Source: Prorocentrum cordatum
Taxonomy: Eukaryota
NCBI GenBank assembly: GCA_963575745.1
Contig: CAUYUJ010000070.1
Span: 558,001-622,000 of the forward strand
Reading direction: 5' to 3'
DNA: 64,000 nt
The notes under the pieces were generated by a model that saw nothing but the letters and a program-made list of their open reading frames with translations, did not search any database and was not told the DNA's origin. Of the stretch, positions 1 through 21,159 are shown piece by piece; position 1 is the stretch's first letter; every line of letters begins with the position of its first letter. The position numbers and the translations under genes are program-made.

Positions 1-892
1 AGGATCCGCTCCTCCCTGGACGGGGCTTGCCAAACTCGTCATCTACTCTCTGAAAGCAGCTGTTCAGAAAAATATCGCTGAGTGGTATCACCACAAACGA
101 AACTTCACCACTTGCTGTTTGCGATCACGCAAAACTGCCCTGCAACTTCTCCCACCCTGTACTCCCGTGAGACAAAGTGTTGTTACCATGGTGGGCGCGA
201 ACATTGTGTAGAGATGTTGTGAACCGTCTCCTGCACCTTGTGAACATGGCGCTACTGCGCCGCCGGTGCTGCCAGCCGCGGCTGCCGTGTTCTTGCCTTC
301 GTCTCCTCGGCGCCCACGTCACTGCTTCTTGCGGCGGCCCTGCTTGGCTCTCGCCCCGCCAGCTCTGCCGCACGTCGGCCCCCTCGCTTCCTGCGCCCCC
401 ATCTTTCCGGCGCCGAGCCCCTGGATCTGTGCCTCGCTTGGGCCGTGCCAGTGTCGGCGCCTCTGCGGCCTGCTGTCCAACTTCTCCTCCGCCCCCTGCC
501 GCTCCTCTGGCGCCTGGCGCCTCGTGTGGCCGCTTTCTTCTGGTGGGCTTGTTTTCCACCACCACTACCATAAGTAGGAGGGGGAGGGGATCCTCCTCCT
601 CCTCTTCCTCCTCATCCTCCACCTCCTTCCCCCCTCCAACTTATAGTGGCGGTGGTGGGAAACAGGCCCATCATCTTCTGCTTCCCCCGCTCCCAGCTTC
701 CTTGCACCCGGCCGCCCCGGCCTGCCTCTCAGCCCAGGGCACCTGGGCCACCGCGCGCTCCTCGCACCAGGTGGCTGACTCGATGTGCGCTGAGCGTGGC
801 CCGCCGGTGCTTGACCTGCCGTTGCCTTGCCAATGCGGCGCCTGGAGGACAAGGCGCCCTGATGCCTGCAGTGCGCCCCAAGGCTCCACCTC

Positions 893-897
893 AGAGG
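893..897 (+). repeat. 5-bp target-site duplication AGAGG (left copy)
   Basis: AGAGG immediately precedes the left LTR, and the same 5-mer follows the right LTR. Confidence 0.9.
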
Positions 898-1134
898 AGT
901 CCAAAGTGAGCTTGGTAGGTCACATTGCATCCATTTCCATGTCGGGGAATACGATATGTGTATGTGGATGGGTAGGATAGGAGAAGATCGATGTATCGGT
1001 TTTTCCAGCACATGGCGAATACCATGTCAGGTATCCGGGCAAATAGGGCGCGCGTGCCTTGAGCCACAAGGCAGCGACGCGCAGGCTATACTCTCGTGTA
1101 TATATATACACCCCAAAAGAGCTACCCTTAAAGT
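898..1134 (-). repeat. 3' LTR (237 bp)
   Basis: AGTCCAAAGTGAG...GCTACCCTTAAAGT aligns with 17014-17254, with roughly 15 substitutions and a (TA)n length difference by eye. Confidence 0.95.
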
Positions 1135-1588
1135 CGGGAGGGGAGGAGACGGAGAGTAAAGCCGCGCAGTCGCTAGGCTCTCGGCAATCGCGCGACAGCT
1201 CGAACGGAAAAACAGTGCTCGCAATCTAGTTCACCACTAGACAGAAGGGCGAGCTTCCTCGCCGGCGAGTTACCTCGCAAAGGTTTTCCACGCGTTTTGC
1301 AAAGAGAGCCCCTGGGGCGACCAAGGGCTAGCGGCCCGGTTAGAGGTTAGCCAAACAGGATATTCCCCTCCGGGCAAGAGATATTGAGGCAAGGAGCCTA
1401 GGAGAACTGGAAAGGCTCGCTGCCAAGCGTGAAAAATGGCATGGCCCGTTTCCGAGCGAGCTGGAGTGCGCCTACATAATAGGCGCCCGTGCTGGCTAGC
1501 TGGACCGCAGAGGCAACAAGGACAGACTAGAAACGATTCGGCTTCAGTTTTGTTTTGTCCTCAGGGCCCCGAAAATGAACAAACTGCT

Positions 1589-2293
1589 TCACGTCATACT
1601 CAACGACTGAGTACCTGACATCACTTCCAAAAGCAGCTCCCGATCGATACTCCCCTTTGTGTGCCCATCTGCGGTCATGTCCCTAGCGTCACACCACTGT
1701 ATGTTATGCACTATACCTATATCCATGAGCTCACGTATCCAACTGGTATGTCCTAGCAGGGTGCGTTCTGTCGGTATCTTGAGGTCTTTGCTAGACAGTG
1801 ACTTGTATACAGACTCGGCGTCTATCGTGAAGGATACTTTGACAGCCAGGCCTCCAACTTCACGCATATCCCGTAGTTGTCGCGGGGTGAGTGCCCCAGC
1901 CTTGAGCTCGTGGAGGGTGATGAGCGTGGGATAGCATTCATCAAGGTTGTGTGCAGCTGCGAGTGCCTTAGCGGCGTAGCTGGACCTCACCTGCAGTCGG
2001 TGTGACTTGCATAGACCGTCGCAAAGGTGAACGACGGATTTGCCTTGGGGCGAGCTTCCTCGCCTTAGCACGTTAGCCCCGCGAATGCCGTAGCCTTTGG
2101 TCTCGTCGTCCTCCTCCCCGGTGAATCTCCGATAACCAGAGTCACTGTGTATGTCTACCTCACCAGTCGGCTTCATCCGAGGGAAGGTGATGCGTTTCGG
2201 GCTGCTGATCAGCTTTCGCGCCACAGCATTCAGTCGCATGACTTGTAGGTTGGTGGGCTCCTGGATCTTCTGGAGAGACACCACATACACCAT
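1589..2293 (-). pseudogene. Copia RNase H domain (plus RT C-terminus)
   Basis: Motifs IHSDSG, VRSSYAAK(E)ALA, IDAESVY, WCDARDMTADGHTKG match copia RNase H; the conserved E appears as K. Confidence 0.9.
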
Positions 2294-3300
2294 GAGCCAG
2301 ACCTGAGCGAGGAGGCATAGGCGAGAGCTCCTCGCAGGCTAACGAACATGTCGGCAATGAGCTTGGTAGCCTTAGCTTCGGCCGCTGCACCTGTAAGTTC
2401 GGGATGTGTGATAGAACGTAGTTGTTTGATGTACTCGTCTTGGTCCATTATCACATCCCCTTGTTCGTTCTTGGTGTAGCGGACGGTACAGTTGGTGTAA
2501 GAGTGCGTGTTGAGCTTGCACTTGCCAAACACCTTTTCAACACGTTGCACGTAATCATCTACGTGTTTCTCTAAGCCTCTCATGTTGATGTCGTCGACGT
2601 GTTTTGCTGTTAACACATCCTGGCTGAATTCGAATTCTGGATCGTAACTAGTCGTGCGAGGTCTATAGCTCGAGTGGTCGTGCGAAGCTTGAGAGAGAAC
2701 GCCCTTGGGGCGTCTTTCGTACCGGTCCCTGGCTTCAGGCACCTAAGGCAGCGCCGGCTCTCATCATAAGAGGAGAAGCCCGGAAGGGTGCGAAGCACCT
2801 GGGCACCTCCTGGTGGAAGTGCGAAGCAAACCATGCGAGTTTCCTCGCCGGTGGCGTGAGCAAGTTCCTCATATGTCAGGCTTTTGAGGAATGCTTTGTC
2901 AATGTCCGTAGATGCTAAGATCCAGTCTGGATGACACGCCGCTTCACTTGCCAGAAGCCTCTGGGACTGTCGGCGAGCAATTCCCGAGAAGGTTTCCACG
3001 TCGAAAGCTTCCGCGTCCATAAAATCCACGGAGGGCAAGTCTGAGACGGATTGTTTTGACATTCTCGGTGCCCACCTTCACAAACTTCCACTTGCATACG
3101 TATCTTGACGTCGTAACGTTGGAAGTTTTCGATAAATCGTACATATCAAAACAGTGGTTGTCGAGCCAGATCTTGAGTTCGGTGTACAAGGCTTCGCTGA
3201 TATGCTTGGGATGTGCTGCTATGTCGGCCTTAGTAGTGAGTAGGTCATCTTCCTTAACTACTACAGCACGTTCAGCAGCCAATGATACGTATACTCTCAT
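2230..3300 (-). pseudogene. Copia reverse transcriptase, split by frameshifts over ORFs 2944..4254, 2610..3062 and 2230..2742
   Basis: SRYVCKWK, IRLRLALRGF, STDIDKAFL, LKPGTGTKDAPRAF, KHVDD (YxDD equivalent), MDQDEYIKQL. Confidence 0.9.
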
Positions 3301-4229
3301 CGTTGCGACCATACTTGGCTCGAGCTGTGCCAGTTGGATCTGATCCAGTACGACCTTTGTCACTTCTGGCGTAAAGCACAATTCGGCGCATGGGCGATAT
3401 TCGCCACTGTCAAGAGAGTAATCCTCGTCAGGTGTGGTCGAGCATAACGAGACAAAGCTAAACTCTTGCTGTTCAGGCTCGTCGCCGAGCGTATCCGATA
3501 CAAGAAGATCTTCCTCGCCCACCGATGCTGAGACCAAGACACATTGGTCGGGCAGCATAGTAGTTGGGACGCGGTAGAGACATTCGTCGGTCACCGACAT
3601 GGGATGAAGGTCCATACGCAGCTCATCATACCATTCCTCCATCATCATGGCCTGGATGCCGTGTTCCTCGCTTTCCTCGTAGATTGTGGACAGGCGACCT
3701 TCGCTTGGTGATGAAGCACCTGGGGTGCCTGGAGCAGGCCTGTCTCCAGGCTGGCCAGGTCTTTCAGACGTTGTGTCCGAGAGTTGATACTTGACCAGGT
3801 CGTCGTGAAACCCTAGGGAAGGAGCTTTTGACGTCAGGCACTGGATGAGTCTGGAGTGGGTGCTACCAGTGATTTGGGAGATGCTCAAACCGGTGCCTAC
3901 GCACTCGTAGTAGTGGAAGGCTGGGTTGACATCGCTGTCGCAGTGGATCAATGTCGACCCTGTGGCGCACTTGACTGAAGGTAGGTTGGGCACGCTCTTG
4001 GCCAACCTCACGGCTACTACGCGCGCAACTCTGAAGTAGTTTCGCACGAGATACTGTAGTGCCAGACGCGCGGGTGAAACTTGCTGTCGTCGGAGAGGTT
4101 GAGGTTTCCCTGTAGCCAGGGATATAGCCGAACACTTTGGCAGGTTTCCCTGCACCGAGGTGTGCCACGTAAGTGAGGACGGTCTGCATGGCCATGTTGT
4201 CCATGCCAAGTTCCCTGGTGAGAAGGCAT

Positions 4230-5290
4230 TCAATATATAGCGTGCGGCGAGCATCGGGGTACATCACAATCACCTTACGCGATCCTGCCTTGACGACTAC
4301 GCGTCCGCGTTCGGGCACGTTACGGATGGCAGGGAACGGGCCGTTCCAGCCTCTAGGATCGTCCTTAGTGGCCGTGGGTCGGTGATAGTCGACCCGCTCC
4401 CCAGCAGAGCATAGGCGAGCACCATCCGGCGCTGTCTTGGCCCTGAGGGCACGGTTCGTCTTCGCCACCGCCGTTGCCTGAGTTATTGCTTCCAGGCTAA
4501 CTTCCCTCACGCGGCGCTCGCGTTCGTGGCCTGACGTCTCGGGGCCCTTGGGAAAGTCAAGGGTGTCGAGGTCAGGAAGGAAAGAGGGTTGTCGCCCAGC
4601 GCGCGCTTGGCACGGCGATACACCGTTGTAGAACGTGAAAGCGTTAGTGGCGAAGATGCCTTCGGCTAGTACCCTGGTAAATACAATGGGGATGTTCTGT
4701 ATGTTCAGCTCTTCCTCAATCATGCGAAGAGTGCCTCTGAGGATGCCGTTACGCGACTCAATCGAGGTCGCGCGTTGGCCAGGCGCTCGGATACGCAGTG
4801 TCGTACCCTTATGCGCCATCATGGCCTTGGCGGTGTCGTTGTTGAGGGCACCTTCTCCATCCGAGTGCAGTACCTTGAAGGGTCCATGATAGGCGATCCA
4901 GCAGTAGTGGTAGGCGTTGAGTATAGTCTCACGCTCTTTGTCGGGGACTTCTTGGCCTGCTGTCAGGCGAATACATCGGTCCATAATGTGGAATATGATC
5001 CGTTTGTTGTAAAACATGAGATCTACTTCGCCTTCGTCAAGCCAATTTCCAGGGGGGCTCACTGAAGGTAACGTGGAGTTACCTGGGCGCTCCCAAGCTC
5101 TACACTCCCGACAAGTGTCGCAGACTTCTTTAATCATGTTTAATCGAACAGCGTCTAAACCCACCTTTTCGAGGATCAGCCTCATCTTGGGTTCCTTCGC
5201 ATGATACCACTGTAAGTGCAGTTTGCGGAGTTCCTTCTTGACTACATGAGGCTCATAACTGCGGAGGTTCTGCAGACTGCGTTGGATATC
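4230..5290 (-). pseudogene. Integrase (HHCC zinc domain + DDE core) inside ORF 3863..6109
   Basis: LRKLHLQWYH...CDTCREC (HHCC); EVDLMF, HSDGEG and IESRNG give the D,D,E triad; WNGPF C-terminal motif. Confidence 0.92.
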
Positions 5291-6029
5291 AGACCTCGTC
5301 CAGTCAGGCAATCGTGGGGCCCCCGAGCCAGTTGAGGCAAGAGGGTTCCTCGTGGCTCTCCGCAGTCGGCCCCCTTCGGCAACTGCATCTGGTGGTGGAG
5401 GTACACCTTGTAAGCGGCCACGGCGGGCCGCTACCTGTGGTGGTTCGCTCGACGACGCGGAAGGCGTGTTTCCACGCTCGGGCGCGTCTCGCAGTATATC
5501 ATAGCTGCTCGCACCTGATGTGGGATCGGTGTTCCCAGGGGCGCGTGGCCCTGGTGGCCTGGCGCGGGCGCCCTGGCGGCCACCCGATGCCGAGGCTTGA
5601 CCCTCACCCAGCCTGGGCAAGGGGTCCCACCAGGCTGGCACAGTGCGCCCCTCTGGGCCATGGTCATCAGGGAGTTTGAACGGCTCGGCAAAGCGGCATT
5701 TGCCGGGCTCGGTGTCGAGGTGGTTCTTAACACCCTTGCCCCTCGTGAGGTCCTTCTGGCATGCAGGACATGGCCAATATGCGGGGATGGTGTCGTGATG
5801 TTTACACTGTGTAGGATCCCTGTTGTGGCTAGGGCTGTCCTTGCGGACGTTGTCGATGCATGCTGGGCACGCGGCTACTTCTGGAATGACACGTGCACCA
5901 AGGCGTTTCATACGATCTCCCAGTTCGGCTCGATCAGAGAGGTCGGTAGGATAAGCCTGAGCGGTTCGCGCAGGCGCGTCTCCGCGCGCGTTGTCAATGG
6001 CTTTCGCCAGGTAGACGGCTTCCACAAAG

Positions 6030-6640
6030 GCGGACTGCAGTCGTCGGGTATACTGCTGTGCTAGTGAAAGCTCCTTGTTGCACGGCTGCGCATGCATGTG
6101 CCGTTGCACTTGAGCAGCCCGAAGGGTTTAAGAATCGCCTCGTCGTTGCTGGTGATATCCGTCGGCTTCTTGATATAGTCCCCAGCAGTATCCATGAGTC
6201 CCGTCGCACATTGGTCGATGCGTGCAGTTGTAATGTGTGATCGGTCGGCAAGTTCTTTCCATGGGGGATCTGATCCACCCATGTTCCTGTGGGTTGCTCG
6301 CGCATGAACCACCTCCGTGCGTTGTCTTGTGTCAAAGTTATTTTGCCACAGTAGGTTTTGTGTGGCAAGTCTTCTTTGTGGTGCTGTTTCCAAGTGTCGC
6401 AGTTGGCTTGGCAGTTGTAGTAGGATGGTGGTCCTGTGGTGGGGCAGCTCGGCTGTAGAATGGCGACCCGTACGTAGCATACTGCAAAGTAGTGGTCTAC
6501 AGCTCGCTGCACCGAGGGATCTCCCAGGTCGACGCACGTGGTCTTGTCTAGATTGCCGCCTGCGGAGAGGCCTCTTGAGAAGGCAAGCTTTGAAATGCCA
6601 CCCTCACCTCCACACAGCTCCAAGAAGTCGGCGCAGTTGT
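6030..6640 (-). pseudogene. Cytosine DNA methyltransferase-like domain (frameshifted)
   Basis: FLELCGGEGG (motif I-like), LQPSC (motif IV PC-like), MREQP (motif VI-like), then DQCATGL...IKKPT in the next frame; DNMT-bearing retrotransposons are known in dinoflagellates. Confidence 0.75.
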
Positions 6641-6745
6641 TGTTACCAGAGCATAGAGTAGCCACTATATTATATACATCGGCGTGTGTGTCGGGCAGAA
6701 ATGTGGGGAGGGTAGGGAACAGGTCATCTTCCTCGTCAGAGCTGA

Positions 6746-7986
6746 TCAGCTCGACGCGGACGTCAGTGCTCCAGGTCGCCATAAGGTCCTCTCCGAGTCC
6801 TGGCGAGTCATCGCCACTATCGTCGTTTCCATCTTCAACGTGCTTTTTGATGCGGCGAGGCTTGATGCCTGCTTCCTTTTCGGCTTTAAGCCTTTCCTTC
6901 TGTTTGATACGCGATTCAGTGGGTAGAACTTGCTCGTCGTGTTCACCGGTCTGCATGCCCATCGTCGCTGATGAGAGGGTACCTGCAACAATCGCCAGAG
7001 TCGGGAGGGGGAAGGACAGTCATCTATGATGACGCGTCTAGGTTTCTTTGGTGATTGAGCGGGCTCGTTGCCGAGCATGACCTGCTCCTCGGGCTGCCAG
7101 TACAAGCGTGTGCTGATGTTGGCAAACCCTTCGGGCAGTGGTACATGCCAATCATACCCCGTCGGTTGATCGGCTACTGCGATATCCTGGATAACTGTGT
7201 TAGTATCCAGGTTGATCGTCACACGTCGGATAACATCAGACCAATTTGGTCCACCTTTGTTGGTCGTCACATAGATTGTATATTATGGTCCGCACGCGTG
7301 TATGTGCTTAGGTATACCGGCACGTTTCCGTGCATAGTGTTTCCCTTCCCCAGGATCCGATCATTAAGGTGGCGAGTGAGCGTGATGCGTGCTTGTGCTC
7401 TCCATTCGGCATGTCGTGCCGTTTGGCCGTACCCATCCAAAACATGTTGTGGTATCGTCTGTTTGCACGTACATGCCCATAGCTTGGAGCTAATCGGTAT
7501 TGATGTGGCTACCTGCATATGTGAACCACTTGGTGTATCATCCTGCATATTGAACCTAATACCGAAAGGGCATGACCACATCCGCACTACGGCCAGCTTA
7601 AGATCTTCTAGGGTGTCACGTACTGGAGATAACTTCCAAACGTATCCCAGGGGTCCAAACACTATAATCACCATACGGAGCTTCCGTGTCTTCGTCAGAA
7701 GGTTCTGAATGCGTGACCAGTGTGGGGCTACTCTTTTACCTGGGGTCCTTACGTACCAGTCCCCTGGAGCGCTGACCCAGATTAGAGCGTAGTCCCCGCT
7801 AGATACCGCCCAAAAACACTCTGTGCCCACAGCTGTCATGAGCTCGTTGCGGGAGATACGGTCACAGGTAGATCCTCGGGTGCGGAGGTCAGCGCAAGCC
7901 TCTCTCGTATCCTCGATGACGAAAGCTCTCTTTTTATGGCGGGTTGCCCCGCTGTCCCTGTTACCCCCTGGCCTCTCGGCTAGCAT
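6746..7986 (-). pseudogene. Uncharacterised polyprotein segments between protease and DNMT-like domain (ORFs 7267..7986 and 6746..7270)
   Basis: Non-low-complexity ORFs collinear with pol; contains GPNWSDVIRRVTINLDTNTVIQD. Confidence 0.55.
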
Positions 7987-8499
7987 GCAAGGCGACGCGG
8001 GGATAGCGTCGCCCTGCCCTCTTCACGATGAGGAAGAGGGCCTTGTCGCGCTCGCCAGCATCTGAGCTTCTTGCAGATGCTGAAGCTCGGCCTGGCAGCG
8101 CGCGGTAGCCTCAGAGGCGGATTGCTCCGCAAATGTGGCCAGCATAGCCGGGTTGTCCGTTAGCTGCTTCAGGATGCCATTCGACCTCGCGTGGGTGACC
8201 GTCTGCAGCTCGCAAGGCGTGTACCCCATCACTATCTTCTTGCGTGTCTTCAACGCGTCCAACGGTGCAACACCTTCGCCGAGCTGGGCCAGTGTCCTGG
8301 CTACGGAGCAATCGAACGTCTCCAGATCGTCGATGCTGTCGCCTCTCGTCGCCGCCTTGGCGAGGACTGCGAGCAAGCCCTGAGGCAGGTCTCCCTGCAC
8401 CTGTTGGCGCTCTTGCGAAGGAGACGGCTCGCCCGTCAGCACCGTCTGGAATGACGTCGTACTCGTACTTGAGGCGGGTTGCCCCGCGGCCCCAAATCG

Positions 8500-8935
8500 G
8501 TCACACCTGATCGACAGATGGCCTGATGGCAACTTGGCTGTAGGCATGACTTTGGAGCCCTCGGGGAGTTCCATCTTGACCTGCCCCTTCCCTAGGAAGA
8601 TCAGCTTCTCCTGGCCTCGCTCAAGCACAATAATGGCGCGCTTGTCCTGCATGCTGTCGAGGCCCAGGATAGCCGGCAGGTCCTTGCCGCAACCCGACAC
8701 GATGTTGGTCTTGTACGAGTCGATCTGGGTCGAGCCCTGGTACTCGCAGGCAATGCTGAAGGTGCACACGGTGTCGGATGGGGCCGACCCCTCGCCTACC
8801 CCGTTTATGTTGAGCAACGAACGGGGTTCGAACGTACAGGGGCGATTGTGTGACTCAGCAGCCTGAACAAATTTGCGGCTCGTGTTCCACCCCCATTATT
8901 TTGATCTTCGAGCCCACATCTATGAAGATCGCGTT
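8500..8935 (-). pseudogene. Retropepsin-like aspartic protease (frameshifted)
   Basis: AIFIDVGS (D[T/S]G-like) at the end of ORF 8855..11074, then INGVG, LPAILGLDSM and PSGHL in ORF 8023..8817. Confidence 0.8.
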
Positions 8936-9899
8936 GCCGCCGTCCTCGAGAAATTGTCTGCTAGGCTGCTTGACGTGCACCGTTTCTGTTGCGCATTTTG
9001 CGACATCCCGCAGGCTTCCCCGCGTCTGGGACGCGCCTCCTGGCGGGTTTCCCCGCTCCTCTGGAGTTCGGCGCAGCCGCCCGCCGAATAACTCCAACAC
9101 TCTGGCACTCGGCCTGGTCGGTGCATACCTTGGCTGAAAATCCCGATGGAGATTGGCACGGGCCCCCGGCCGCTGTCCCGCGACTATTCGTGCCAGATGG
9201 ATAGCGTTGATGCCTTGTTCTTCCCGCCAGTTCGCATACTCGGCACGTATGCTGGCGCATTGGTCCTGAGTGGTACGGCGCGTCAACATCAGGTATGATT
9301 GCAGAGTTATGTCCTGCAGCCCCTCATCCATGACGTGATCCTGGTACTGCAACCACTCGTCGAACTCGTTGTTCGTGGCTGAGAGCTCGTCGGCCCGGGC
9401 CGCCACTACCGACGTCGCTACTGACGAGCCTGAGATGTCGAGCGTTTCGCTCTCAGGGTCGTTTGCGTCCAGCATGAAGGTAGTGTGCGCATTCTCCATC
9501 TGGGCTTGGAGGTGGCGAACCCGCTGCTGCCGTAGCTGGTCAGGATCCAGCGGCAGCTCGGCATCGCCCCCGCCTTGGGGGGACATCGGAGGAGCCACTT
9601 GTCCGATCCCAGGCTCGTAGTGAGTTGGAGGGACCGGCGAAGGTGGCGCGTTTGGCAGGTTGCCCTGCTGCGGCGCCGGCGTCGGGGTGAGCTGGTCGAA
9701 GTACCCCGTCTCCATCGGCGCGCGCACCTCCTCCGGCAGGCTTCCCCGCTGCTGGAGCTGATCCGCCTGCGTGTCCAGCGTCCTGGCCGTCATCGTTTCC
9801 ACCATGCCCCTCAGCTCCCGCAGCTCCCTCGCCGCTTGTTCGGGGGCCTGCGTGACGGAGCCGGTCCATGGGAACGACGACGCTATGATACCTGGTGCC

Positions 9900-10057
9900 C
9901 GGCAGATGGCACACACGGGTTGTTGGGGATCACCGTCTCGCTGGTTCGTGACATGGCCCACCACGCGCACGTTCCAGCATTCCTCGTGGAATAAATGGTT
10001 GCACCTCATGCGGTAGATGGTCTCCCTCGGCCTGAACTCCTCGAGACACACCGCGCA
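9900..10057 (-). pseudogene. RING-H2 (C3H2C3-type) zinc finger within ORF 8855..11074
   Basis: CAVCLEEF...CNHLFHEECW...CAICR. Confidence 0.9.
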
Positions 10058-11663
10058 GGTGTCTTCCATCCCGGCGTAGACCTCCACGTCCGCCGCCCTG
10101 GGGTACACCCGCCGCTGCCGCTCCAGCACCGCCTCGGCGTCCAGGAAGACAGCTGGGGGATCCCCAGCGACTGGCTGAGCCTCCGGCGCTGGGGCAGCTG
10201 CTGCTGGGGCGGCTGCCACTGCGGAGGCAGCGGGCGACGCTGCCGGCGAGCCCCCTCGCGTAGGTGAGCCCTTGCCCTTGCCCCTCAGTGCCTCAAGGGC
10301 TGCTGCGCGTGCTTGATCACGTACACTCTGCACCGCCTGCCGGCGTCTGAAACACGCCTGTTGGGTGTGGTATGTCTGCCTGATGTAGTCGGGCACTCCC
10401 CTGCTGCCCGAAGATATCACATGGGCTGAGGGCTGGACAACCACGTCCGGCCTCGTCGGTGCAAGCATAAATGACATATGATGGTACATAGACGGATCAC
10501 TGCAACGCGCGTTGGTAAGGCGATGAAATTGGCCCGCTGCTTCACGCACAAACCTATTCGGGAGCCTGGAGCCGTCTGGATACAACGGCGGATCCATGGT
10601 TGCGGCTGGCGGCCTCTGGCCTTGGGCCATGCTCGGGAGGGCATTGAAAACCGGGATAAAGGCTCGCTGCCGAGCGGGGTCGAACGGGTTCGGACCCTCA
10701 GGCTCCCAAGACCAGGCTGGCCTCCACCTCGGACCGCTTGGGTAAGGCAAGTTGTGGCTCTGCACCTGCTGCACCGCGGCTGCCACCCGTGTGCGGTAAT
10801 CGTCCGGCACCCCTGTAGGAATGTTCTGGTTGATCAGCGGTCGGTGCTGCAAAGGAGTGCCGGGCAGGTTCCCCTGCGATGTTGAGGGCGTGCCTGGTGG
10901 CATCATGCCCAGGAGAGCTGTGCCCTGTTCAGCTCGGGCCACGGCGATCCGCCCCATAAGGGTGCCGCTCGGAGCAGGACGCTCGGGTGTCCCGAATGGG
11001 GATTGCACCGGCATCGACGCTGCCGGCGCCATGCCCCTCGGCGTGCGCATGCTGTGCGAGGGGCCCCCTGGCATCTGCTCGAATCGAGCTAGCTATCCGA
11101 AGATGTCGCGGCCAAATGTTTGCGGATCTCCCTGCGGCTCGGGCAAGTCGTTCCTGATCCCGTTGACTGGCAGGTTTCCCTGCAGAGCCTGGCGGTTGCG
11201 CGTCACCATCGCGGACATACCTCCCCGACCTGCAGCCCAGGGGTCTTGTTGATAGAGTCTGTCCGCTAACTGTTCCACCTGCTCGGGGTTCAGAGCAGCC
11301 ACAATCTGATCAAGATCCGCGTTACTGAGGACTTGCCAGGATGCGGCGCTGGGCCCTTGGCTCGGAGCGCGGCTTGGCGGCTGACTGGGAGCCGCACTCC
11401 CCGCCTCACTGGCGTTGATCATGAAGACATGGTGAGTCTCGGGCTGGTTTTCGGCAGCGCGAGTTGGGTTGTAGTGGTCTCCCCACTCTCTCTGGCAGCA
11501 TGCTGATGGGGGCTCGTCGTCACGCCAGAGCGACATCCTGCACCCAATGCTCGCGATGCCCACTGGCTTCGAATTGCCAGGCGCATTCAGTTCGGCCGGC
11601 GTGCATCGTGCACGGCGGTTGCCTAAGTAGTGAGGGTTACGCCACTGCCTGCCGGTGGCGATC

Positions 11664-12420
11664 TCCTCCACATAGTTAATGTAGTAGGGCTCGATGACGC
11701 CGTCGACCCCTTCAGACAGCAACACGCCGTTGTCGGACCAGCAAAACTCGATGTTGTCTCTCAAGGCCTGGCGCCAGTCGATCGAGACGATGATCTCGGA
11801 CTCAGGGCCCCATCCGCTCTGAACGTCACGACGCTGAAGTGTCGGAACGAAGTGGATATGTGATCGCCCGGCCCCTTTCCTCTTGGCGTTGTGCTCCTTG
11901 CGGCAGGAGGGGCCGACCCGCATGATGCCCTCGAAAGCCGCCCACCTTGCACCGTGAACAGCCGCGTCAGGGCACGGGGCCGGTCTCCCGGCTGGGTTGT
12001 CACACAATACGATGTACATGTACAACGACCAAGGGGCCTTGAGCTTCCACGAGTGCCCCTGCGAAGCGCGGACGAAAAGATCAGCCATGCCCGTCTCTCG
12101 CATCAAGACCTTGAACTGCAACCGCTGCTTTTCCTCTCCGTCGGACTCATGGACGTGGACGATCGACATCGTGATTGCAGCCATCTCGTCGACCGACCTC
12201 CTGTAAAAGGTATCGGAGATAATCTTGTGCTCATCGGATTTCGGGTAGTACCCGTCGCGCCGATTGCCGTCCCTCCAGGGAAAGTTGAGCACGAGGTCGC
12301 GGAGGTTGATCCAGACGTCGCGGTCGTCGAACGTCTTCAACTTCCATACTGGGTTGTACGGCCTGTCCGGCGCGTGCCTACAGATCCGACTGAGGCACTT
12401 GCTGAGCTGCTTGAGCTTGT
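11664..12420 (-). pseudogene. kptA: Tpt1/KptA RNA 2'-phosphotransferase domain within ORF 11093..12811
   Basis: LSKCLSRICRH, KQRL, VRASQGHS, HGA (HGT-like), RSHIHF and IVSIDWRQALRDNIEFCWSDNGVLLSEGVDGVIEP give the complete ordered Tpt1 motif set. Confidence 0.88.
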
Positions 12421-13508
12421 AGTTGGTGTTAGGAATGATGCCCCTCTGGCGGCAGCTCGTCATGAACGCCTCGTCGACCGAACGGATAGGAGGAAGCTTT
12501 CGTGGCGCACGCCGATCGAGAATCATCTCCAGGCTTCCGCTCGTGAATGAGGTGTCACCGGGGTGGCGCAGTTCATCTTCTGGTTGGGCTGCTGCCGCTG
12601 CTTCTGGAGCTGCTGCTGATGACGAGGCTGCGGCCCCTGATGATGAAGACAGCGGCGGCAGCGCCCAGCGGGTCTCCCCGCGACGCCTCTTGGCCAGCAC
12701 TGCTTTTGCTAGTAGGCACCCAGCGGCCCCGAGGCATGGCACCCTCCTCGGACTCCTTGGAGCGCGTCGCCACTGGCGCTGCAGGCGTAGGTGTAAACCT
12801 TGTACGCTCAAACGCCTTGGCCTTGTTGGCGAAGGAGCCGCTCCGGCTCGGCTGACGCCTGTGGACCTCTAGGGAGTCCTGCGGCTGTTGCATGGCGTCA
12901 GATCTCCGTGCAGGGCTTGCCCGGGCTGCTGGTATCGGCACCTCGGCGACGGGCCTTCCCATCTGCACGTTGAAGCCAAGCTCCTCGGAGTTGGTAGAAG
13001 GGTTATTCTGCTTTTCGCCTGAGGGCGTCCTATCTCCACGAGTCTCACTGTCGGAAGCCTTTGGGATCGTGGGAAGCTTCCTTGCTTCGGCTTGCGACTC
13101 CTGCAGCATTCGGCGAGTTGCCTCGCGACTGCGTTCTTCCGCCAACCGCTTGCGTTCTGCCTCTGCTGCGGCTCGTTGGACCTCCAGCTCGTCGTCGCTC
13201 GTCATTTCGCATGTGCGGGACTGGCTAAATACGCCAGGCGGGTTTTCCCGCGGCGAGCGAGTCATTGGGGAAGGAGGATCGCTGAGGCGCCTGGCCTCGA
13301 GACGGCTGTTGACCACGCTGATCTCTTCCTGAGTCATGGGCACAAGAGGTGGATGACCCTCCTTTGCAGGAGTGCGGCCTCTGTTGGGGCTCAGAACGTC
13401 GCTGGGGCCGACAGGACAGCCAGGTCGGTGTTCCTGGAAATCCTTAGAGCACGGGCCGCAGGCCGCGTCAGGCCTGCAGCGGCGGCGCTCCTCGACGACG
13501 GCTCTCAG

Positions 13509-13638
<130 letters not shown>

Positions 13639-15269
13639 GCACTGCCTCTTTACCAGGACGTCGAATGTTCGTAGCGACCTGATGTCCGCCCCGTATAGAC
13701 CTGCCCTGAGCGCCCCCGTAGATCGGATTGCCCAGTCCATAGGCAGAGCGTTCGCCCGTTCTGCGCCTGGGATCGTTGTAGGCCAGCAGCTGACCCCCGC
13801 GTCGGGCAGCGTGCTCTGCTGGAGCTGCCTGCCGATGCTCACGTGGGAGTCGTCCTTGGGGGTGTTGATCGTCTCTGGGACGCGTGTGTGAGCGAGACCT
13901 CCTGGCCCGGTCGCCTGCTGGTGGCGTCGCTGGCATGGCCTGGGCAGGAGTTGGCGTCGCGTGCTGGACAGGAGTGGGCGGCACATGGTGGGCAGGCAGG
14001 TCTCCCTGCTGGTGAGGGTCGGTCATGGCGTGGTCGTGTGCGGGTTGTCGTGCGTTGGTCTCGTCTTCGTCGAAGTCCACCTCCTCGTCCTCGCCGTCGA
14101 TGTTCGTCATGAGGATGGTGGTCTCGTCCTCGCACAGTCCACAGCAGTCCCCATCTTCGGCTTCTGAGGTCGGATTGCCATTGATAAGAGTCAACGGCCC
14201 ATTCGGGACAGGCAGGTTTCCCTGCTGTGGTGGCGTCTGCGCACCGCTAGGCTGTCCTGGCGTTGGTGGTATGATGGTCGGACCAGGCTCGTTACCGAGC
14301 TCGGCGTACGTCTCGAGCTGAGCGTAGTCGTAGGAGGGCTGCCCGATGATGTTGCGCATAGCCGTATGGCCGGGGTAGTACCACGCCGCCTGGAGACCCC
14401 ATCCAGGCGGAGGAGGTGGCTGTTCGCTGCTGGTGCCGGGCCCGTTTCCGAGCTCATCTTCGCGCTCGTGGGTACGAGCATGGCCCCGCTCGCGCGTGGT
14501 GATGGCCCGCTGAGGGGCTTGGCGCCAGCGCCCCCTCGCGCACCATAGGTGCCGCTGTACGTCGTCGGGGAGCGCACTGTCGATGAGAGAGAAGGCAGCC
14601 GTCAGCAAGTCCGCGTCGTCACAAATGTCTGAGTCCTGCAGCATCATTTGGCCGCTCTCGACATTTTGCTGACTGTATGGATACTCTTCAGTTTGAGCGG
14701 CATGCATCTGCATGAGGGTCTGCAACGCCGTGTATGGTCCGTACACACCCGGCGCGAGCATGCCAGGTGGCTCATGCGGGTTGCCTGGCACGCCCGCGGT
14801 GAAAGCATGGGCCTCCGTCTCCATCAACTCGCGGTAGTGTGGCTGGTACACTGGAGTAGGCCCGTTTCTGGGCAAGGGGTCGAACTGGTGCTGAATGTCA
14901 CACTCAACCTCCGAGGGCGTGGCTTCGGCGGTGTCGACCTCCATCTCGTCCTCGTCGCTGCTCTCGAAGGCCATGATGTTGCCTGGATTGCCGAACATCC
15001 AGTCATGGAACGAAAGGGGCTGGTTTCCCAGCGCCCCGCCCTCAACAGGCGTGAGCTCGACGGCTCCGATGTTGCACAGGCGGAGGCACTCGAGGTAGAA
15101 GGCGTAGAGCCCGTGGCCGCACGCCCCGATCTCGTCCAGCGCGTCCATGTTGCTGACCCACGTGAAGAAGATCTGCTCCATGGCCTCGAACTGCTGGAGA
15201 CTGAAATACTCAATCGCGGGTTCACTTGAGCCCAAATGAACCTCGGACGTTCTACCCTTTCCGTTCCCC

Positions 15270-16600
15270 TCCACTGGACAATCCTTCACAAGATGGTCTG
15301 GGTGATCACATCCATGGCACTTCAAGATTTGGCCTTCTCTACCTCGCGGGTTTCCCCGCCTACCTTTGCCTTTGCCTGAGGTTCCCCCACGGCCTTTCCC
15401 ACGACCCTTTCCCCCGAAAAATATTTCGTCATACTGATCGTCTGAGAGCCTCTGGAGGAAAGTCGTGATGCCCCGTCCGTTCAACCTTCGGCGACCCCGT
15501 TTGCCCTTGCCTTTGCCCTTGAAGCTCCTCCTGGTCCTCCTCCTCCCGCGACGCACTGGTTTCGTGTAAACCTCCTCCACCTACGCTTTGCTTGCTGTAA
15601 TAACCAAAACAGATGCTCGGCACGCTGATCGCCACTTTCTATTTGCATGATATCTGACCAATCGAACGGTTCGACACCACCTGACGATATCGCGTCGGTG
15701 TCAGTGTCTGAGTCAAAGTCATCATCTCCTAAGTAGGTGGATACTCCGCCGCTCAGTGGGTTCGCTTCCCCCCATAGACAGAGGCGAGGCTGAGGTTCTC
15801 TAGGAGGAGGGCTGGTTGCCAAACTAGGTTGTGATATATCCCCTGCTAGTAGTGCGGTAGTTTCACCAGGATCGTCGGCCCATATGTTTGCGGGCACATT
15901 TCCAGGCTGAGCACCAGAGGTTAAGGTAGTATAGACAGTTCCACTGCCAGTTCCCCTTCCCCTTCCAAATACTGATCCAATATTCCCAGGAGGCCGTTCG
16001 GCCAAATGGCCAACCGAGCGCATCCTCTCACACAGATATTCATACTGTTGCTGTGTTCGGGGCAATTGATGGTTCAGTGGTTGTACGAGTTGCATGGCTC
16101 GCTGGTTGCCGACGCCTAAGGCGCGGAATAGGATGGTCGTAAGTAGCTGGAAGCTGTGAAGATCAAAGCCCACCGAATGTGCCTCAAGACGGGCCATTTC
16201 GAACCGCGCGAGGGTTACGTCGATTCGCTCTCCGTGAGGCACGTGGAAGTCGATGAGCTGAGTGCCTGAGGTGAGTTGGCGCTCGTCCTCTAGGCGTTCG
16301 AACTTCATGTTTAGGAGGAACATGATATATGTTACTGGGTCGGTGTGGACACCGCCGATGTCCGCACCATTGTTTATGATGTCAGGATGTCAGGTGGAAC
16401 CCTCATGGCGAGTGTCCTCGCGAGGCCGCCCAGGCCGCGTTGGATGGCGGCCGCTTGGGCTTGTGGCGTCATGCGCCCGCTCGTGGCGTTAAGCCACGCG
16501 TTGGCCTCGCAGACGTAGTCGCGAAAGGGTGCGTTGCCTTGCGGGTCCCAGTAGGGGCCATGTGCTTGCCCATCAGTTCCGTTGTCTCCTCGGCGCATGT
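15270..16600 (-). pseudogene. Gag-like region with CCHC zinc knuckle (frameshifted over three ORFs)
   Basis: PYWDPQGNAPFRDY...W...T N-terminal motif, helical capsid-like ORF 15481..16323, GKGKG repeats and CHGCDHPDHLVKDC at about 15278-15320. Confidence 0.8.
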
Positions 16601-17039
16601 GTCCGATTGCCGCGCCCAGCGCGAACCATAGAATGGCGAGGATAACCAAACCCAGGCTGTGGAGGTATGGCTGGCTATCGGGCGCGTTGCCGCGCTGGGG
16701 CATGGGTGGTTGCGCCTTGTCAAGTCTGCGAGGCGCCTTGTCTTGCGGGTCCCCCCGCTTGAGTTTCAGGTACTGCGCCTTCGGCTCGTTTCCGAGCGGT
16801 CGGTGATAGCGTAGTGATGAAGCGTATGTGGTACCAATGTTGTTGTCTAGACGTCGTACCTCTCGTGTTGCTTCTTGGTCTTGAGTTGGTCCTCGTAGGT
16901 GTTGGTGGAGTGGTAGCGCAGGGTAGAAAGTGGTCACGAGGATCGTGCCCAGTAGCATAAGTGTGAGAAGGGCAAGAGCTGACCACACGAGAGTGCGGCC
17001 AGCTCCGCTACCAAGTCCAAAGTGAGCTCGGTAGGTCAC
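16374..17039 (-). CDS. First ORF of the element: two hydrophobic segments in frame with the Gag N-terminus
   Basis: LVWSALALLTLMLLGTILVTTFY and LGLVILAILWFALGAAIG precede the PYWD motif; the true start codon is uncertain. Confidence 0.5.
   Translation of the reverse strand: MTYRAHFGLGSGAGRTLVWSALALLTLMLLGTILVTTFYPALPLHQHLRGPTQDQEATREVRRLDNNIGTTYASSLRYHRPLGNEPKAQYLKLKRGDPQDKAPRRLDKAQPPMPQRGNAPDSQPYLHSLGLVILAILWFALGAAIGHMRRGDNGTDGQAHGPYWDPQGNAPFRDYVCEANAWLNATSGRMTPQAQAAAIQRGLGGLARTLAMRVPPDILTS
17003..17013 (-). promoter_or_regulatory. Primer-binding site TGGTAGCGGAG (probably tRNA-iMet)
   Basis: Abuts the 5' LTR, begins with TGG (complement of CCA) and resembles known iMet PBSs such as TGGTAGCAGAG. 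Confidence 0.85.
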
Positions 17040-17254
17040 ATTGCATCCAATTCCATGTCGGGGAATACGATATGGGTATGTGGATGGGTAGGATAGGAGA
17101 AGATCGGCGTACCGATCTTTTCAGCACATGGCGAATACCATGTCAGGTATCCGGGCAAATAGGGCGCGCGTGCCTTAAGCCATAAGGCAGCGACGCGCAG
17201 GCTATACTGCCGTGTATATATATATATATACCCCCAAAGAGCTACCCTTAAAGT
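17014..17254 (-). repeat. 5' LTR (241 bp)
   Basis: Direct repeat of 898-1134, followed on the minus strand by the PBS. Confidence 0.95.
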
Positions 17255-17259
17255 AGAGG
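17255..17259 (+). repeat. 5-bp target-site duplication AGAGG (right copy)
   Basis: Matches 893-897. Confidence 0.9.
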
Positions 17260-17939
17260 GGCCCAGATGGGGTCATCCATGCTTCCCGGACGCATCAGTG
17301 ACACAGGCTCTAGCACCACGCACCCACCCCGCTTGTGCAGAGCAGTCCTGGAGACTCTTTGTCCAATCCAGCCGACGCAGGCACAGGTCTCAGAACTCCC
17401 TCCCTCACGCCACCCTCTCCCAATTTTACCTCCCTACTTCGCTCCCTTTCCTTCGCCTCCCTTCCTGCAATCCGTTCCCTCGCCTAGGTCCCTGTCGCTC
17501 CCCTCCCTTCCCATTCCTCCTCTTTGTCTAACAGTCTGTCCCGATACACCCATACAGATACCCCCCTTGCCCGAATTCCGATAAGACGGCGCCTTCTTGA
17601 AGCATATCTTGCACTGGGTCTTGGCTGCTATCTGCTGGATGTGCGAACCTCGGCGGCAAATTACGGACAACCCATCACATACATGAATCGGAAAGGAGGG
17701 GCGCAAGGAGGAGGAAGGAAAGAGAGCGAGGGTGCAGCAGCGGGAGCGAGGGGAAAGGAACCAAAGGTAGCAGGGGAACGGGAAAAGCGAACTGGAGGGA
17801 GCGAGAGCAATCGCGGAAGGGAAGCACGCTGGAATGTAGTAGCCGAACTGGGCGCAGGGCAGGACATGTAACGACGGAGACAGGCAGAACAAGATGGGAA
17901 CTAGACGACGCCAAAATAGCCGCAACTGGCAATCGTGAG

Positions 17940-18642
17940 TGTATACATATATACATATACATGTAGGTATACATCTGCATGCATGCATGCATGCATACCT
18001 GCATGCGTACATGTACATACGTACCTGCATGCATGTATACATGTATACATGCATGCATGCATGCATGCATGCATACATACATACAGCCATACAAGTGTAA
18101 ATGCATACATCTATACATACATGCGTATATACAGATGTGAATCCATATGTATGTACATACCTGCGTACCTACCTACGTACATTCATGCATACGCACATAC
18201 ATGCATACATACTCGCACTCATGCATGCATACGTATATACATATATATATACATAGATACATGCATGCATGTATGCACGCATGCATGTATGCAGGTATAC
18301 ATACATGCATATCTGCAGACAAACATACATACATATATACATACGCACACATAGTTATATACACCTAATTACATACACATATACATAGATGCACGCATTC
18401 ATCCATCCATGCATCCATCCATCCATACAGTCGTCCATCAATACATACATACATGCATGCATGCATGCATGCATGCATACATACATGCATACGCATATGC
18501 ATGCATACACATGCAGGCATGCATACATACAGCCATACAAACATGCATGTGTGCATATATGCACACATGCATTTCGGCACACATACACATACATGCATGC
18601 AGGCAGACAGACAGACAGACAAACATACAGACAGACAGACAT
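17940..18642. repeat. Compound tetranucleotide microsatellite (CATG/CATA/CATC/CAGA)
   Basis: Directly visible. Confidence 0.95.
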
Positions 18643-19065
18643 ACTCCCATTGTTCTATATTTCTATCATGTGGGACCCCTGCGGACCCCCTCCCCCTTCG
18701 GGATCCCCGGCGCCCAGGGCTCCTGGACGTCCCCTCAGAGGGTCCGGCAAGATGTCCCGGCCCCCAGAAGTCCCTGCCAAGCCTTGCAAATGGGTCGGCG
18801 GCGGTCCCAAGAGACCCCCATAGACGGTCCAAGATGGCCTCCAGCGGCTCCACACGCCCGAAGACAATACAAACTTCACCCCCGAGGGCTTTCGAAACGC
18901 AGAAAAAAACATCCCAGCAAAGCCTCCTAACAGCGATGTGTAGGAGCATATCTGGAACCATTCCCCTTAAGATTCAGATGAGAATCCAGTTGTAGAATTC
19001 TGCTGTTCTCGCAGTCGTAGTCGCATTCGCGATGACAGTCGCAGTGGCAACGGCAGTCGCAATTC

Positions 19066-20568
19066 ACAGCCTCAGCCTCAGCCTGCCTCAGCCTCAGCCT
19101 CAGCCTGCCTCAGCCTCAGCCTGCCTCAGCCTCAGCCTCAGCCTGCTTCAGCCTCAGCATCAGTCTGCCTTCAGCCTCGGCCTCAGCCTCAGCCTGCCTC
19201 AGCCTCAGCCTGCATCAGCCTCAGCCTCAGCCTCAGCCTGCCTCAGCATCAGCCTGCCTCAGCCTCAGCCTCAGCCTGCCTCAGCCTCAGCCTCAGCCTG
19301 CTTCAGCCTCAGCCTCAGTCTGCCTTCAGCCTCGGCCTCAGCCTCAGCCTGCCTCAGCCTCAGCCTGCATCAGCCTCAGCCTCAGCCTCAGCCTGCCTCA
19401 GCATCAGCCTGCCTCAGCCTCAGCCTCAGCCTGCCTCAGCCTCAGCCTCAGCCTGCTTCAGCCTCAGCCTCAGCCTCACTCAGCCTCAGCCTCGGCCTCA
19501 GCCTCAGCCTGCCTCAGCCTCAGCCTGTCAGCCTCAGCCTCAGCCTCAGCCTGCCTCAGCTCAGCCTGCCTCAGCCTCAGCCTCAGCCTCAGCCTCAGCC
19601 TCCTCAGTCTGCCTTCAGCCTCGGCCTCAGCCTCAGCCTGCCTCAGCCTCAGCCTCAGCCTCAGCCTCAGCCTCAGCCTGCCTCAGCATCAGCCTGCCTC
19701 AGCCTCAGCCTCAGCCTGCCTCAGCCTCAGCCTCAGCCTGCTTCAGCCTCAGCCTCAGTCTGCCTTCAGCCTCGGCCTCAGCCTCAGCCTGCCTCAGCCT
19801 CAGCCTGCATCAGCCTCAGCCTCAGCCTCAGCCTCAGCCTCAGCCTCAGCCTCAGCCTCAGCCTCAGCCTCAGCCTCAGCCTGCCTCAGCCTCAGCCTCA
19901 GCCTGCTTCAGCCTCAGCCTCAGTCTGCCTTCAGCCTCGGCCTCAGCCTCAGCCTGCCTCAGCCTCAGCTGCCTCAGCCTCAGCCTCAGCCTCAGCCTCA
20001 GCCTGCCTCCTCAGCCTGCCTCAGCCTCAGCCTCAGCCTCAGCCTGCTTCAGCCTCAGCCTCAGTCTGCCTTCAGCCTCGGCCTCAGCCTCAGCCTGCCT
20101 CAGCCTCAGCCTGCATCAGCCTCAGCCTCAGCCTCAGCCTGCCTCAGCCTCAGCCTGCCTCAGCCTCAGCCTCAGCCTCAGCCTCAGCCTCAGCCTCAGC
20201 CTCAGCCTGCTTCAGCCTCAGCCTCAGCCTCAGCCTGCCTCAGCCTCAGCCTCAGGCCTCAGCCTCAGCCTCATCAGCCTGCCTCAGCCTCAGCCTCAGC
20301 CTGCCTCAGCCTCAGCCTCAGCCTGCTTCAGCCTCAGCCTCAGTCTGCCTTCAGCCTCGGCCTCAGCCTCAGCCTGCCTCAGCCTCAGCCTGCATCAGCC
20401 TCAGCCTCAGCCTCAGCCTGCCTCAGCATCAGCCTGCCTCAGCCTCAGCCTCAGCCTGCCTCAGCCTCAGCCTCAGCCTGCTTCAGCCTCAGCCTCAGTC
20501 TGCCTTCAGCCTCGGCCTCAGCCTCAGCCTGCCTCAGCCTCAGCCTGCCTCAGCATCAGCCTGCCTCA
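19066..20568. repeat. (CAGCCT)n hexamer satellite with CAGCCTGCCT variants
   Basis: Directly visible, about 1.5 kb. Confidence 0.97.
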
Positions 20569-21002
20569 GCATTCAAAATGTGGCCCAGGAATGGAGTTCT
20601 GGGAACTCGAAGAACACGAAGTGGCCTACAGTTGGCTCCGGGCATTCAAAATCATGCCCAGGAATGGAGTTCTGGGAACTCGAAGACCACGAAGTGGCCT
20701 ACAGTTGGCTCCGGGCATTCAAAATCATGCCCAGGAATGGAGTTCTGGGAACTCGAAGACCACGAAGTGGCCTACAGTTGGCTCCGGGCATTCAAAATCA
20801 TGCCCAGGAATGGAGTTCTGGGAACTCGAAGACCACGAAGTGGCCTACAGTTGGCTCCGGGCATTCAAAATCATGCCCAGGAATGGAGTTCTGGGAACTC
20901 GAAGACCACGAAGTGGCCTACAGTTGGCTCCGGGCATTCAAAATCATGCCCAGGAGTGGAATTCTGGGAACTCGAAGACCACGAAGTGCGTTACTGTTGG
21001 CT
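20569..21002. repeat. 73-bp tandem repeat, about 5.9 copies
   Basis: GCATTCAAAA unit starts at 20569, 20642, 20715, 20788, 20861 and 20934. Confidence 0.95.
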
Positions 21003-21159
21003 AAAAAAATCCCCGGCATCCTCCCCTGGATCGCGCCCAGACCCCCCTGGGGCGTCAAGATGCTCTCTTTTGACCCTACTAGAAACCTATCAGTCTTCGC
21101 TGTTAGGTAATAACTGTCCATTGTTTTTTGTCCGATTTGGTATTCTCGACTGTTCAACG

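Follow-up and report, generated by a model that had tools for sequence, protein, structure and literature searches.

The DNA analysed here, called the window throughout, is a stretch of 64,000 nucleotides (nt) of Prorocentrum cordatum (assembly GCA_963575745.1, contig CAUYUJ010000070.1, positions 558,001 to 622,000). It contains a 16.4-kb long terminal repeat (LTR) retrotransposon, whose sense strand is the minus strand of the window and which encloses, in its sense frame, a domain of the Tpt1/KptA NAD+-dependent RNA 2′-phosphotransferase family. The domain lies at 11708-12409 on the minus strand, within an open reading frame (ORF) of 591 amino acids (aa) that runs from stop to stop on the same strand (11093-12868), is open across the whole of Tpt1 and ends at the in-frame stop 11093-11095, ahead of the piece that carries a RING-H2 finger. 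The Pfam family PF01885 (PTS_2-RNA) matches this ORF with an E-value of 4e-18 and 66.5 bits, against a cut-off of 26, and ORF residues 154-387 (window 11708-12409) cover positions 5-177 of the 177 in the profile. In a phmmer search of all PDB chains, human and mouse TRPT1 were the sole sequence matches (7yw3, 9.1e-10; 7yw2, 1.1e-7).

The fold was predicted with AlphaFold2 for 11609-12481, using a 63-row alignment (mean predicted local distance difference test, pLDDT, 87.8; predicted template modeling score, pTM, 0.80). When this model was compared with the PDB by Foldseek, all 22 matches at E ≤ 1e-3 were Tpt1/TRPT1/KptA structures, with 7yw3 (E 2.4e-13, TMt 0.71) and 7yw2 (TMt 0.75) at the top. 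These alignments extend over 265-266 columns and thus include both lobes of the model, namely an N-terminal winged-helix RNA lobe and a C-terminal, ADP-ribosyltransferase-like NAD+ lobe. The family motifs follow one another as LSKCLSRICRH, KQRLQF, RASQGHS, HGA, GRSHIHF, SG and SDNGVLLSEG. The first-pass annotation of this stretch had proposed a Tpt1 domain at 11664-12420 from its motifs and had suggested a profile search and a structure prediction as checks; both agree with its identification, every motif that it listed is present in the same order, and its span contains the profile-delimited domain. We are therefore practically certain that this is a genuine Tpt1/KptA domain. Its identity to the cellular sequences is 23-33%, with insertions in the N-lobe and ahead of RxHIH. 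We classify it as a divergent member of the family with a predicted activity, since profile, fold and catalytic tetrad are those of Tpt1/KptA while one conserved NAD+ contact is lacking and another is ambiguous.

The retrotransposon is bounded by a 5′ LTR at 17014-17254 and a 3′ LTR at 898-1134, both on the minus strand and 92.1% identical over 241 nt. Direct reading of the sequence shows a 5-bp target-site duplication, AGAGG, outside both ends (17255-17259 and 893-897). A primer-binding-site-like sequence, TGGTAGCGGAGC, abuts the inner edge of the 5′ LTR (17002-17013, minus strand) and reads as complementary to a tRNA 3′ end in ...CCA. All the coding features described below are on the minus strand, where long open frames succeed one another with just a few frame changes between them. 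A Gag-like ORF piece (15481-16389) is assigned by its position alone and matches no Pfam family; it is followed by a CCHC zinc knuckle, CHGCDHPDHLVKDC (15278-15319), recognized by its motif, for which the Pfam family zf-CCHC_2 gave only E 0.61. Downstream of Tpt1 there is a conserved segment (..SRAPSQGPS..ASW..DPWAA; 11197-11395) and then the RING-H2 finger (9899-10063; PF17123, E 1.8e-8, 34.4 bits against a cut-off of 27), located about 560 residues after Tpt1 on a 745-aa piece in the same frame as the Tpt1 piece, with one stop (11093-11095) between them. The protease-like region (FIDVGSK ... AILGLDSM; 8650-8926) is read from its motifs, has no Pfam match and, in this copy, is interrupted by a frameshift. 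The order along the element is thus Gag zinc knuckle, linker, Tpt1, conserved segment, RING-H2, protease, about 2 kb of additional sequence, integrase, reverse transcriptase and RNase H. The placement of Tpt1 between zinc knuckle and protease on the element's sense strand, as well as the paired LTRs with their target-site duplication, had been described correctly in the first-pass annotation.

Relatives of the element carry the same domain in the same context. An exhaustive HMMER search over 1.84 billion representatives returned 397 matches at E ≤ 1e-3, and the top ones were not cellular enzymes; they were fragments that tile the entire 591-aa frame, including its flanks outside Tpt1, with 60-87% identity. 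The most informative relative is P0151, an uninterrupted metagenomic ORF of 1379 aa on a 4295-bp contig from a different assembly, in which PF01885 matches residues 228-461 (E 1.7e-13, 51.4 bits) and the RING occupies residues 990-1044. A tblastn alignment places its residues 180-1336, in a single frame, on window positions 12556-8885 (1284 columns, 34.7% identical), and the window sequence has one stop there. The counterpart of residues 40-86 is 12860-12720, in a different frame, indicating a frameshift in the window copy, and collinearity spans residues 40-1336. The C-terminal end of P0151 enters the protease motif IDVGS in frame, and linker, Tpt1, RING and protease follow each other as in the window. 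The identity between the two is unevenly distributed: 52.7% in the RING, 49.3% in the post-Tpt1 segment, 45.8% in the NAD+-binding C-lobe of Tpt1, 29% in its N-lobe and 26-35% in the linkers.

Further sequences support this arrangement. Four fragments (P0011, P0017, P0012 and P0013) bridge the flanks of Tpt1 on both sides, and P0017 reads through at the position of the window stop (mapped at 11095). A third lineage, represented by P0018 (35% identity), has Tpt1 followed by the downstream segment, which is found also in P0012, P0013 and P0033. A word-indexed search returned, among shorter proteins, 25 closer fragments (65-90% identity), of which 13 carry PF01885; all 25 belong to a single EukProt set, labelled Pyramimonas sp. 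The same search gave no near-length or longer homologue at E ≤ 1e-5. Short Logan contigs matching the ORF at 80% identity or above came from three sequencing runs, with 357 in X1, 95 in X3 and 16 in X2. Those of X1 are spread over a wide range of identity (11 at 99% or above, 50 at 95-99%, 148 at 90-95% and 148 below 90%), and the best DNA sequencing run shares 0.23 of the query words; no RNA run appeared among the matching runs, which says nothing about expression. The Tpt1-bearing family is thus highly repeated and old. No relative was detected in metagenome contigs scanned with P0151 and the window ORF, nor in viral contigs scanned with single proteins, and the window itself holds no second copy of the element beyond the LTR pair. 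Taken together, these data make us confident that Tpt1 is an integral, conserved module of the polyprotein of this family. Separately, the first 24 residues of a EukProt sequence (P0009) correspond by eye to a C-terminal stretch of the window's integrase piece, MQTVLTYVAHLGAGKPAKVFGYIP (4080-4160), and are followed by the Tpt1 N-lobe (12290-12100), which points to another copy with a rearranged integrase-to-Tpt1 junction.

The relationship between transposon and cellular Tpt1 sequences was examined in a tree of 52 rows, 6 from transposons and 46 cellular, from which 70 partial-coverage matches and the other transposon fragments were omitted. The window type groups with the P0151 type in one clade (SH-aLRT 92), and all six transposon rows lie on one side of a branch with support 68, apart from the 46 cellular rows; the branch leading to P0018 is very long. 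This topology is compatible with a single origin of the six sequences. The tree contains no supported cellular sister of the transposon Tpt1s and consequently does not single out a donor lineage. Among the cellular matches, two metagenome-derived proteins (P0014 and P0046) have unusual layouts: one, of 776 aa, consists of complete Tpt1 units repeated in tandem, and another, of 1700 aa, has Tpt1 at its C-terminus.

The Arg-His-Arg-Arg tetrad, reported to be essential in Tpt1 (PMC6333775), is complete in the window copy (R164, H165, R249 and R335 of the ORF). It is also essentially retained among the 53 relatives and fragments, with R164 in 6 of 6, H165 in 5 of 6, R249 in 15 of 15 and R335 in 16 of 16. 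Two other NAD+ contacts behave differently. The HGT motif, which contacts the adenosine 2′-OH of NAD+, is HGA in the window (residues 305-307), and its last position is T in 9, A in 9 and G in 1 of 19 relatives, as compared to T in 48 and S in 2 of 50 cellular rows. The arginine of S-G-x-R is G in the window, and D in 9, V in 3, G in 3 and R in only 1 of 16 relatives. This arginine would be the NAD+-phosphate cage arginine (Arg139 of CthTpt1), a mapping made without an aligned CthTpt1 sequence. As for the effect of such changes, the hydrogen bonds of the HGT His and Thr to NAD+ are possibly redundant, and an alanine mutant of the cage arginine works at 1 mM NAD+ and fails at 0.1 mM (PMC6333775). 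Both changes had initially been taken as signs of decay of this copy; since they are common among the relatives, and the arginine is missing also from the intact P0151, we consider them lineage features instead. In intact members of the family, Tpt1 is predicted from its sequence, with moderate confidence, to be catalytically active.

The remainder of the coding region is divergent. The interval between protease and integrase holds about 2 kb of extra coding sequence (5994-8022) in open frames without a Pfam family. The integrase (4745-5218) is read from its H..H..C..C and subsequent D, D, E motifs, with a lead from the Atlas, where the nearest cluster carries rve (score 0.96, 195 shared features), although rve is annotated on only 16% of the cluster members. 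The reverse transcriptase consists of frameshifted pieces (2581-3093) with the motifs DIDKAFL and HVDD, and on one of these pieces RVT_2 matches below threshold (E 4.7e-4, 20.3 bits, cut-off 31.6). The RNase H-like end of pol (1652-2149) is a motif reading only. Neither the integrase nor the RNase H piece has a sequence match in Pfam or, by phmmer, in the PDB, and a Pfam search of ten ORF pieces at E ≤ 5 gave nothing besides RVT_2 and noise. In element sense the integrase motifs lie 5′ of the reverse transcriptase motifs, even if the domain calls are weak. From this gene order (protease, integrase, reverse transcriptase, RNase H), the 5-bp duplication, the sub-threshold RVT_2 match and the rve lead, we describe the element as copia-like; the copia label given to it initially agrees with gene order and duplication, while RVT_2 remains under its threshold and no polypurine tract is seen. 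In the window copy, the LTRs have diverged by 8%, and the coding region contains one stop, a microsatellite and at least four frame changes. It is an old, dead copy, in which the Tpt1 domain itself is still open.

Some further observations concern this copy and its surroundings. The microsatellite, (CT)n followed by (AT)n, lies at 13483-13646, between zinc knuckle and Tpt1 and at a frame change, and is probably a secondary expansion in a dead copy. Upstream of the Gag-like piece, a 248-aa open frame (16374-17120, minus strand) begins in the 5′ LTR and contains, by eye, two hydrophobic stretches, together with three GNRA hairpins of the type described below. Within the extra coding sequence, the minus-strand ORF 5994-7019 shows stretches (FLELCGGEGG, QPSCP and FMREQP) that by eye recall C5 cytosine methyltransferases, and its nearest named Atlas cluster is C5 DNA methylase (0.84, a lead only). 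This ORF has no Pfam family and nothing meaningful in a phmmer search of the PDB, and its single-sequence fold (pLDDT 32.9) is unusable, for which reason the methylase-like reading stays a lead; if real, it would place a DNMT-like domain in a copia-type element. Outside the element, 17900-21100 is occupied by long degenerate short-repeat arrays, with ATGC/ATAC-type units followed by periods of 22 nt and 73 nt. No tRNA genes were found within the window.

A second feature of the element is a set of dispersed RNA or DNA hairpins, whose discovery was led by a recurring peptide (QGNLP, RGDAP, RGNPP and similar). Between 1266 and 16797, the sense (minus) strand contains 33 perfect hairpins with a 4-bp stem and a GNRA tetraloop, spaced by about 500 nt. 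Their first stem bases are 16796, 16757, 16694, 15358, 15031, 14299, 14224, 14008, 13371, 13125, 12680, 11991, 11182, 10876, 9667, 9055, 8486, 8397, 8129, 7951, 7767, 7332, 7075, 6009, 5986, 5848, 5476, 4152, 3939, 3750, 3489, 2847 and 1277. On the same strand, the other 47.6 kb of the window contain none, and the opposite strand has 3 inside the element and 4 outside. Dinucleotide-preserving shuffles of the element (n = 200) gave a mean of 2.5 hairpins (standard deviation 1.6, maximum 8), as against the 33 observed. With a 5-bp stem, the scan yielded 29 on the sense strand and none on the antisense strand or in the rest of the window, and a check of the flanking bases showed that 28 of the 33 fit G-C-N-N-G[GNRA]C-N-N-G-C.

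The stems covary, with CAGG/CCTG in 7 hairpins, CGGG/CCCG in 6, CTCG/CGAG in 4, CGAG/CTCG in 3 and others in the remainder. Codon phase is 0 in 21 of the 33 hairpins, which encode x-G-[N/D]-x-P; here, residues 1 and 4 track codon complementarity rather than chemistry. One hairpin lies past the last ORF, and the primer site is followed, at a distance of 200-300 nt, by a cluster of three. Codon complementarity of the residue pair is found in all 11 x-G-[D/N]-x-P motifs of P0151 (the chance being 0.062 for each pair), and at least three of these motifs align with window hairpins. An Rfam search of 800-17400 gave no match at E ≤ 0.1. The hairpins may be distributed cis-acting signals in RNA or single-stranded DNA that perhaps help to package or compact an oversized genome; any link between them and Tpt1 is speculation.

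Overall, the best explanation of these data, to which we assign a probability of roughly 0.6, is that Tpt1 is a conserved module of a giant copia-like family, borne in the particle, where its substrates are phosphates on nucleic acids of the element itself. Tpt1 would be translated as a portion of the polyprotein that precedes the protease, and because of this position it would probably be carried into the virus-like particle together with genomic RNA, primer tRNA and cDNA. Once there, it would probably move ADP-ribose from NAD+ to a nucleic-acid phosphate. The chemistries reported for the Tpt1 family include removal of internal 2′-phosphates, ADP-ribose capping of 5′-phosphate RNA or DNA and removal of terminal 2′- or 3′-phosphates (PMC6333775, PMC6182162, PMC6573784). 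Our first choice, which we regard as less likely than not, would be that internal 2′-phosphates are stripped from the 16-kb RNA template, for example after resealing by a host enzyme of tRNA-ligase type. An internal 2′-phosphate in the template would presumably stall reverse transcription. As a second choice, which we regard as possible and rather doubtful, 5′-phosphate ends of RNA or cDNA could be capped with ADP-ribose and thereby shielded from exonucleases or ligation. Healing or capping, the function suggested in the first-pass annotation, is likewise a hypothesis. The primer site presumably corresponds to the 3′ end of an initiator-type tRNA, and such tRNAs usually have no introns; therefore, an action on an intron-derived 2′-phosphate of the primer tRNA is less likely.

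Several points weigh against this explanation. Half of the relatives have HGA in place of HGT. While 48 of 50 cellular rows have the S-G-x-R arginine, 15 of the 16 transposon relatives, the intact P0151 included, have another residue there. The N-lobe, with its insertions, is conserved to just 29% with respect to P0151. When the window copy was compared with other copies, the 40 best-supported of 247 differences comprised 17 synonymous changes against 23 non-synonymous ones; this mild excess of synonymous changes is weak support, and these 40 mix decay private to this copy with variation of the family. The integrase, reverse transcriptase and RNase H assignments are mostly motif readings in a highly divergent backbone, and at the 3′ LTR, where a polypurine tract would be expected, the sense strand (1135-1156) is a polypyrimidine, CTCTCCGTCTCCTCCCCTCCCG. 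Finally, no full-length intact element was seen, and the continuity from Gag to Tpt1 is not established by any copy.

Alternatively, Tpt1 could serve in counter-defence and, possibly together with the RING-H2 finger as an E3 ligase, act on host molecules, for example by altering or erasing marks of host RNAs, by making an ADP-ribose-derived signal, or by ADP-ribosylating nucleic-acid ends that the RING would then ubiquitylate. Giant LTR elements gather ubiquitination-related domains (PMC6431247), in other LTR elements the domains captured from the host target its silencing marks (PMC6673714, PMC5890265, PMC9289625), and ADP-ribosylated nucleic acids are ubiquitylated by DELTEX E3 ligases (PMC10810221). 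In our element Tpt1 and RING are neighbours and constitute the two best-conserved accessory segments; however, they are about 560 residues apart, and Pfam detects neither the Deltex C-terminal, ADP-ribose-binding domain nor any other family next to the RING. We consider this scenario unlikely.

It is less probable still that the domain is conserved for a non-classical function, as an RNA- or NAD-binding module that, for instance, helps Gag or the nucleocapsid to select or retain the genomic RNA, with the GNRA hairpins as possible sites. Its proximity to the nucleocapsid region, an RNA lobe remodelled by insertions and 33 sense-strand hairpins that need some reader would fit such a role, and so would the HGA of 9 of 19 relatives and the arginine lost in 15 of 16. 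Yet pure binding does not need the tetrad, which is essentially invariant, and the NAD+ lobe, at 45.8% identity to P0151, is better kept than the N-lobe. The activity of the cage-arginine mutant at 1 mM NAD+ and the possible redundancy of the HGT His and Thr (PMC6333775) also speak against it.

The last alternative, that this one copy happened to receive TRPT1 of the host, whole or in part, or that the LTR pair brackets a host gene, with Tpt1 as a passenger, would suit the single copy in the window and the lack of near-length or longer homologues in the word-indexed search and of related loci in the metagenome and viral contig scans. It is very improbable given the uninterrupted ORF of P0151, which has the same order at about 35% identity, the four fragments bridging both flanks, the 25 close fragments and hundreds of contigs covering Tpt1, the common frame of Tpt1 and its neighbours and the separation of transposon from cellular Tpt1s. 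Because the family is repeated and P0151 collinear, a private, separately bounded insertion, which the first-pass annotation had named as one of two outcomes that would overturn its proposal, is contradicted; the other, a lack of profile or structure matches, is contradicted by the strong matches reported above.

Returning to the explanation that we prefer, a particle-borne Tpt1 acting on the element's own nucleic acids, it can be extended to the other features in a joint reading that, taken as a whole, we regard as improbable. The family would run its own NAD+-dependent marking and repair, in which particle Tpt1 ADP-ribosylates or dephosphorylates element RNA or cDNA and RING-H2 may add ubiquitin-type chemistry, while the approximately 30 hairpins would be RNA handles (packaging or compaction signals, or docking sites for the enzyme) that allow a three-fold oversized genome to be packaged and copied. 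If true, Tpt1 would be the first nucleic-acid ADP-ribosyltransferase to be encoded by a retroelement, and the hairpins a distributed cis-signal of a kind new to LTR elements.

In fungi and plants, the role of Tpt1/KptA is in tRNA splicing. Outside these groups, its reaction is not obvious according to PMC6333775. A Tpt1 kept by a retroelement ties the enzyme to defined nucleic acids, namely genomic RNA, primer tRNA and cDNA ends, so that its natural substrate becomes approachable by experiment. In the full-text literature searched (Repbase and supplementary tables being outside this scope), no Tpt1 has been described in any retroelement, in line with the first-pass remark that it is not known as a standard domain of LTR elements. 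Since distant relatives keep both Tpt1 and RING, it seems that the element has taken over an enzyme with which its host modifies nucleic acids and now uses it for itself, and NAD+-dependent chemistry on nucleic-acid phosphates would be a new class among the few captured host activities that are fixed in LTR retrotransposons.

Compared with the cellular Tpt1/TRPT1/KptA enzymes (PF01885; 7yw3, 7yw2, 6e3a), the element's domain has the same full-length profile match, two lobes, tetrad, RAxQGHS, RxHIH, SG and S.NGVLLS. It differs in being embedded in a polyprotein, whereas the cellular proteins are free enzymes of 180-250 aa, and in its 23-33% identity, its insertions, the loss of the S-G-x-R arginine and the HGA found in about half of the sequences. 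With Ty1/copia elements (Pseudoviridae), it shares LTRs, a 5-bp duplication, a TGG... primer site by the 5′ LTR, an integrase upstream of the reverse transcriptase and a sub-threshold RVT_2-type signal. Unlike them, it is three times the usual length, has core domains under the Pfam thresholds and no polypurine tract by inspection, and adds Tpt1, RING, about 2 kb of extra coding sequence and 33 dispersed GNRA hairpins, which together indicate the extent to which a copia-type element can expand. The giant Burro elements of planarians, with multi-domain polyproteins and ubiquitination-related accessory domains (PMC6431247), are likewise oversized and have a very long polyprotein with several accessory domains; however, they are Gypsy-like, with the order protease, reverse transcriptase, RNase H, integrase, as opposed to the copia order protease, integrase, reverse transcriptase, RNase H seen here, and the words 'Tpt1' and 'phosphotransferase' have no occurrence in that review of giant transposons. 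Finally, captured domains are known from orchid Ty3/gypsy elements with an N6-methyladenosine (m6A) demethylase domain (PMC9289625), from arthropod Copia elements with MBD (PMC6673714) and from retrotransposons with DNMT (PMC5890265, according to which the Copia elements of Symbiodinium have no DNMT). As in our family, a host-derived enzyme or reader domain has been fixed in frame and kept across copies of these elements; in the present case, however, the captured domain is Tpt1, it is located between Gag and protease, and it is paired with a RING.

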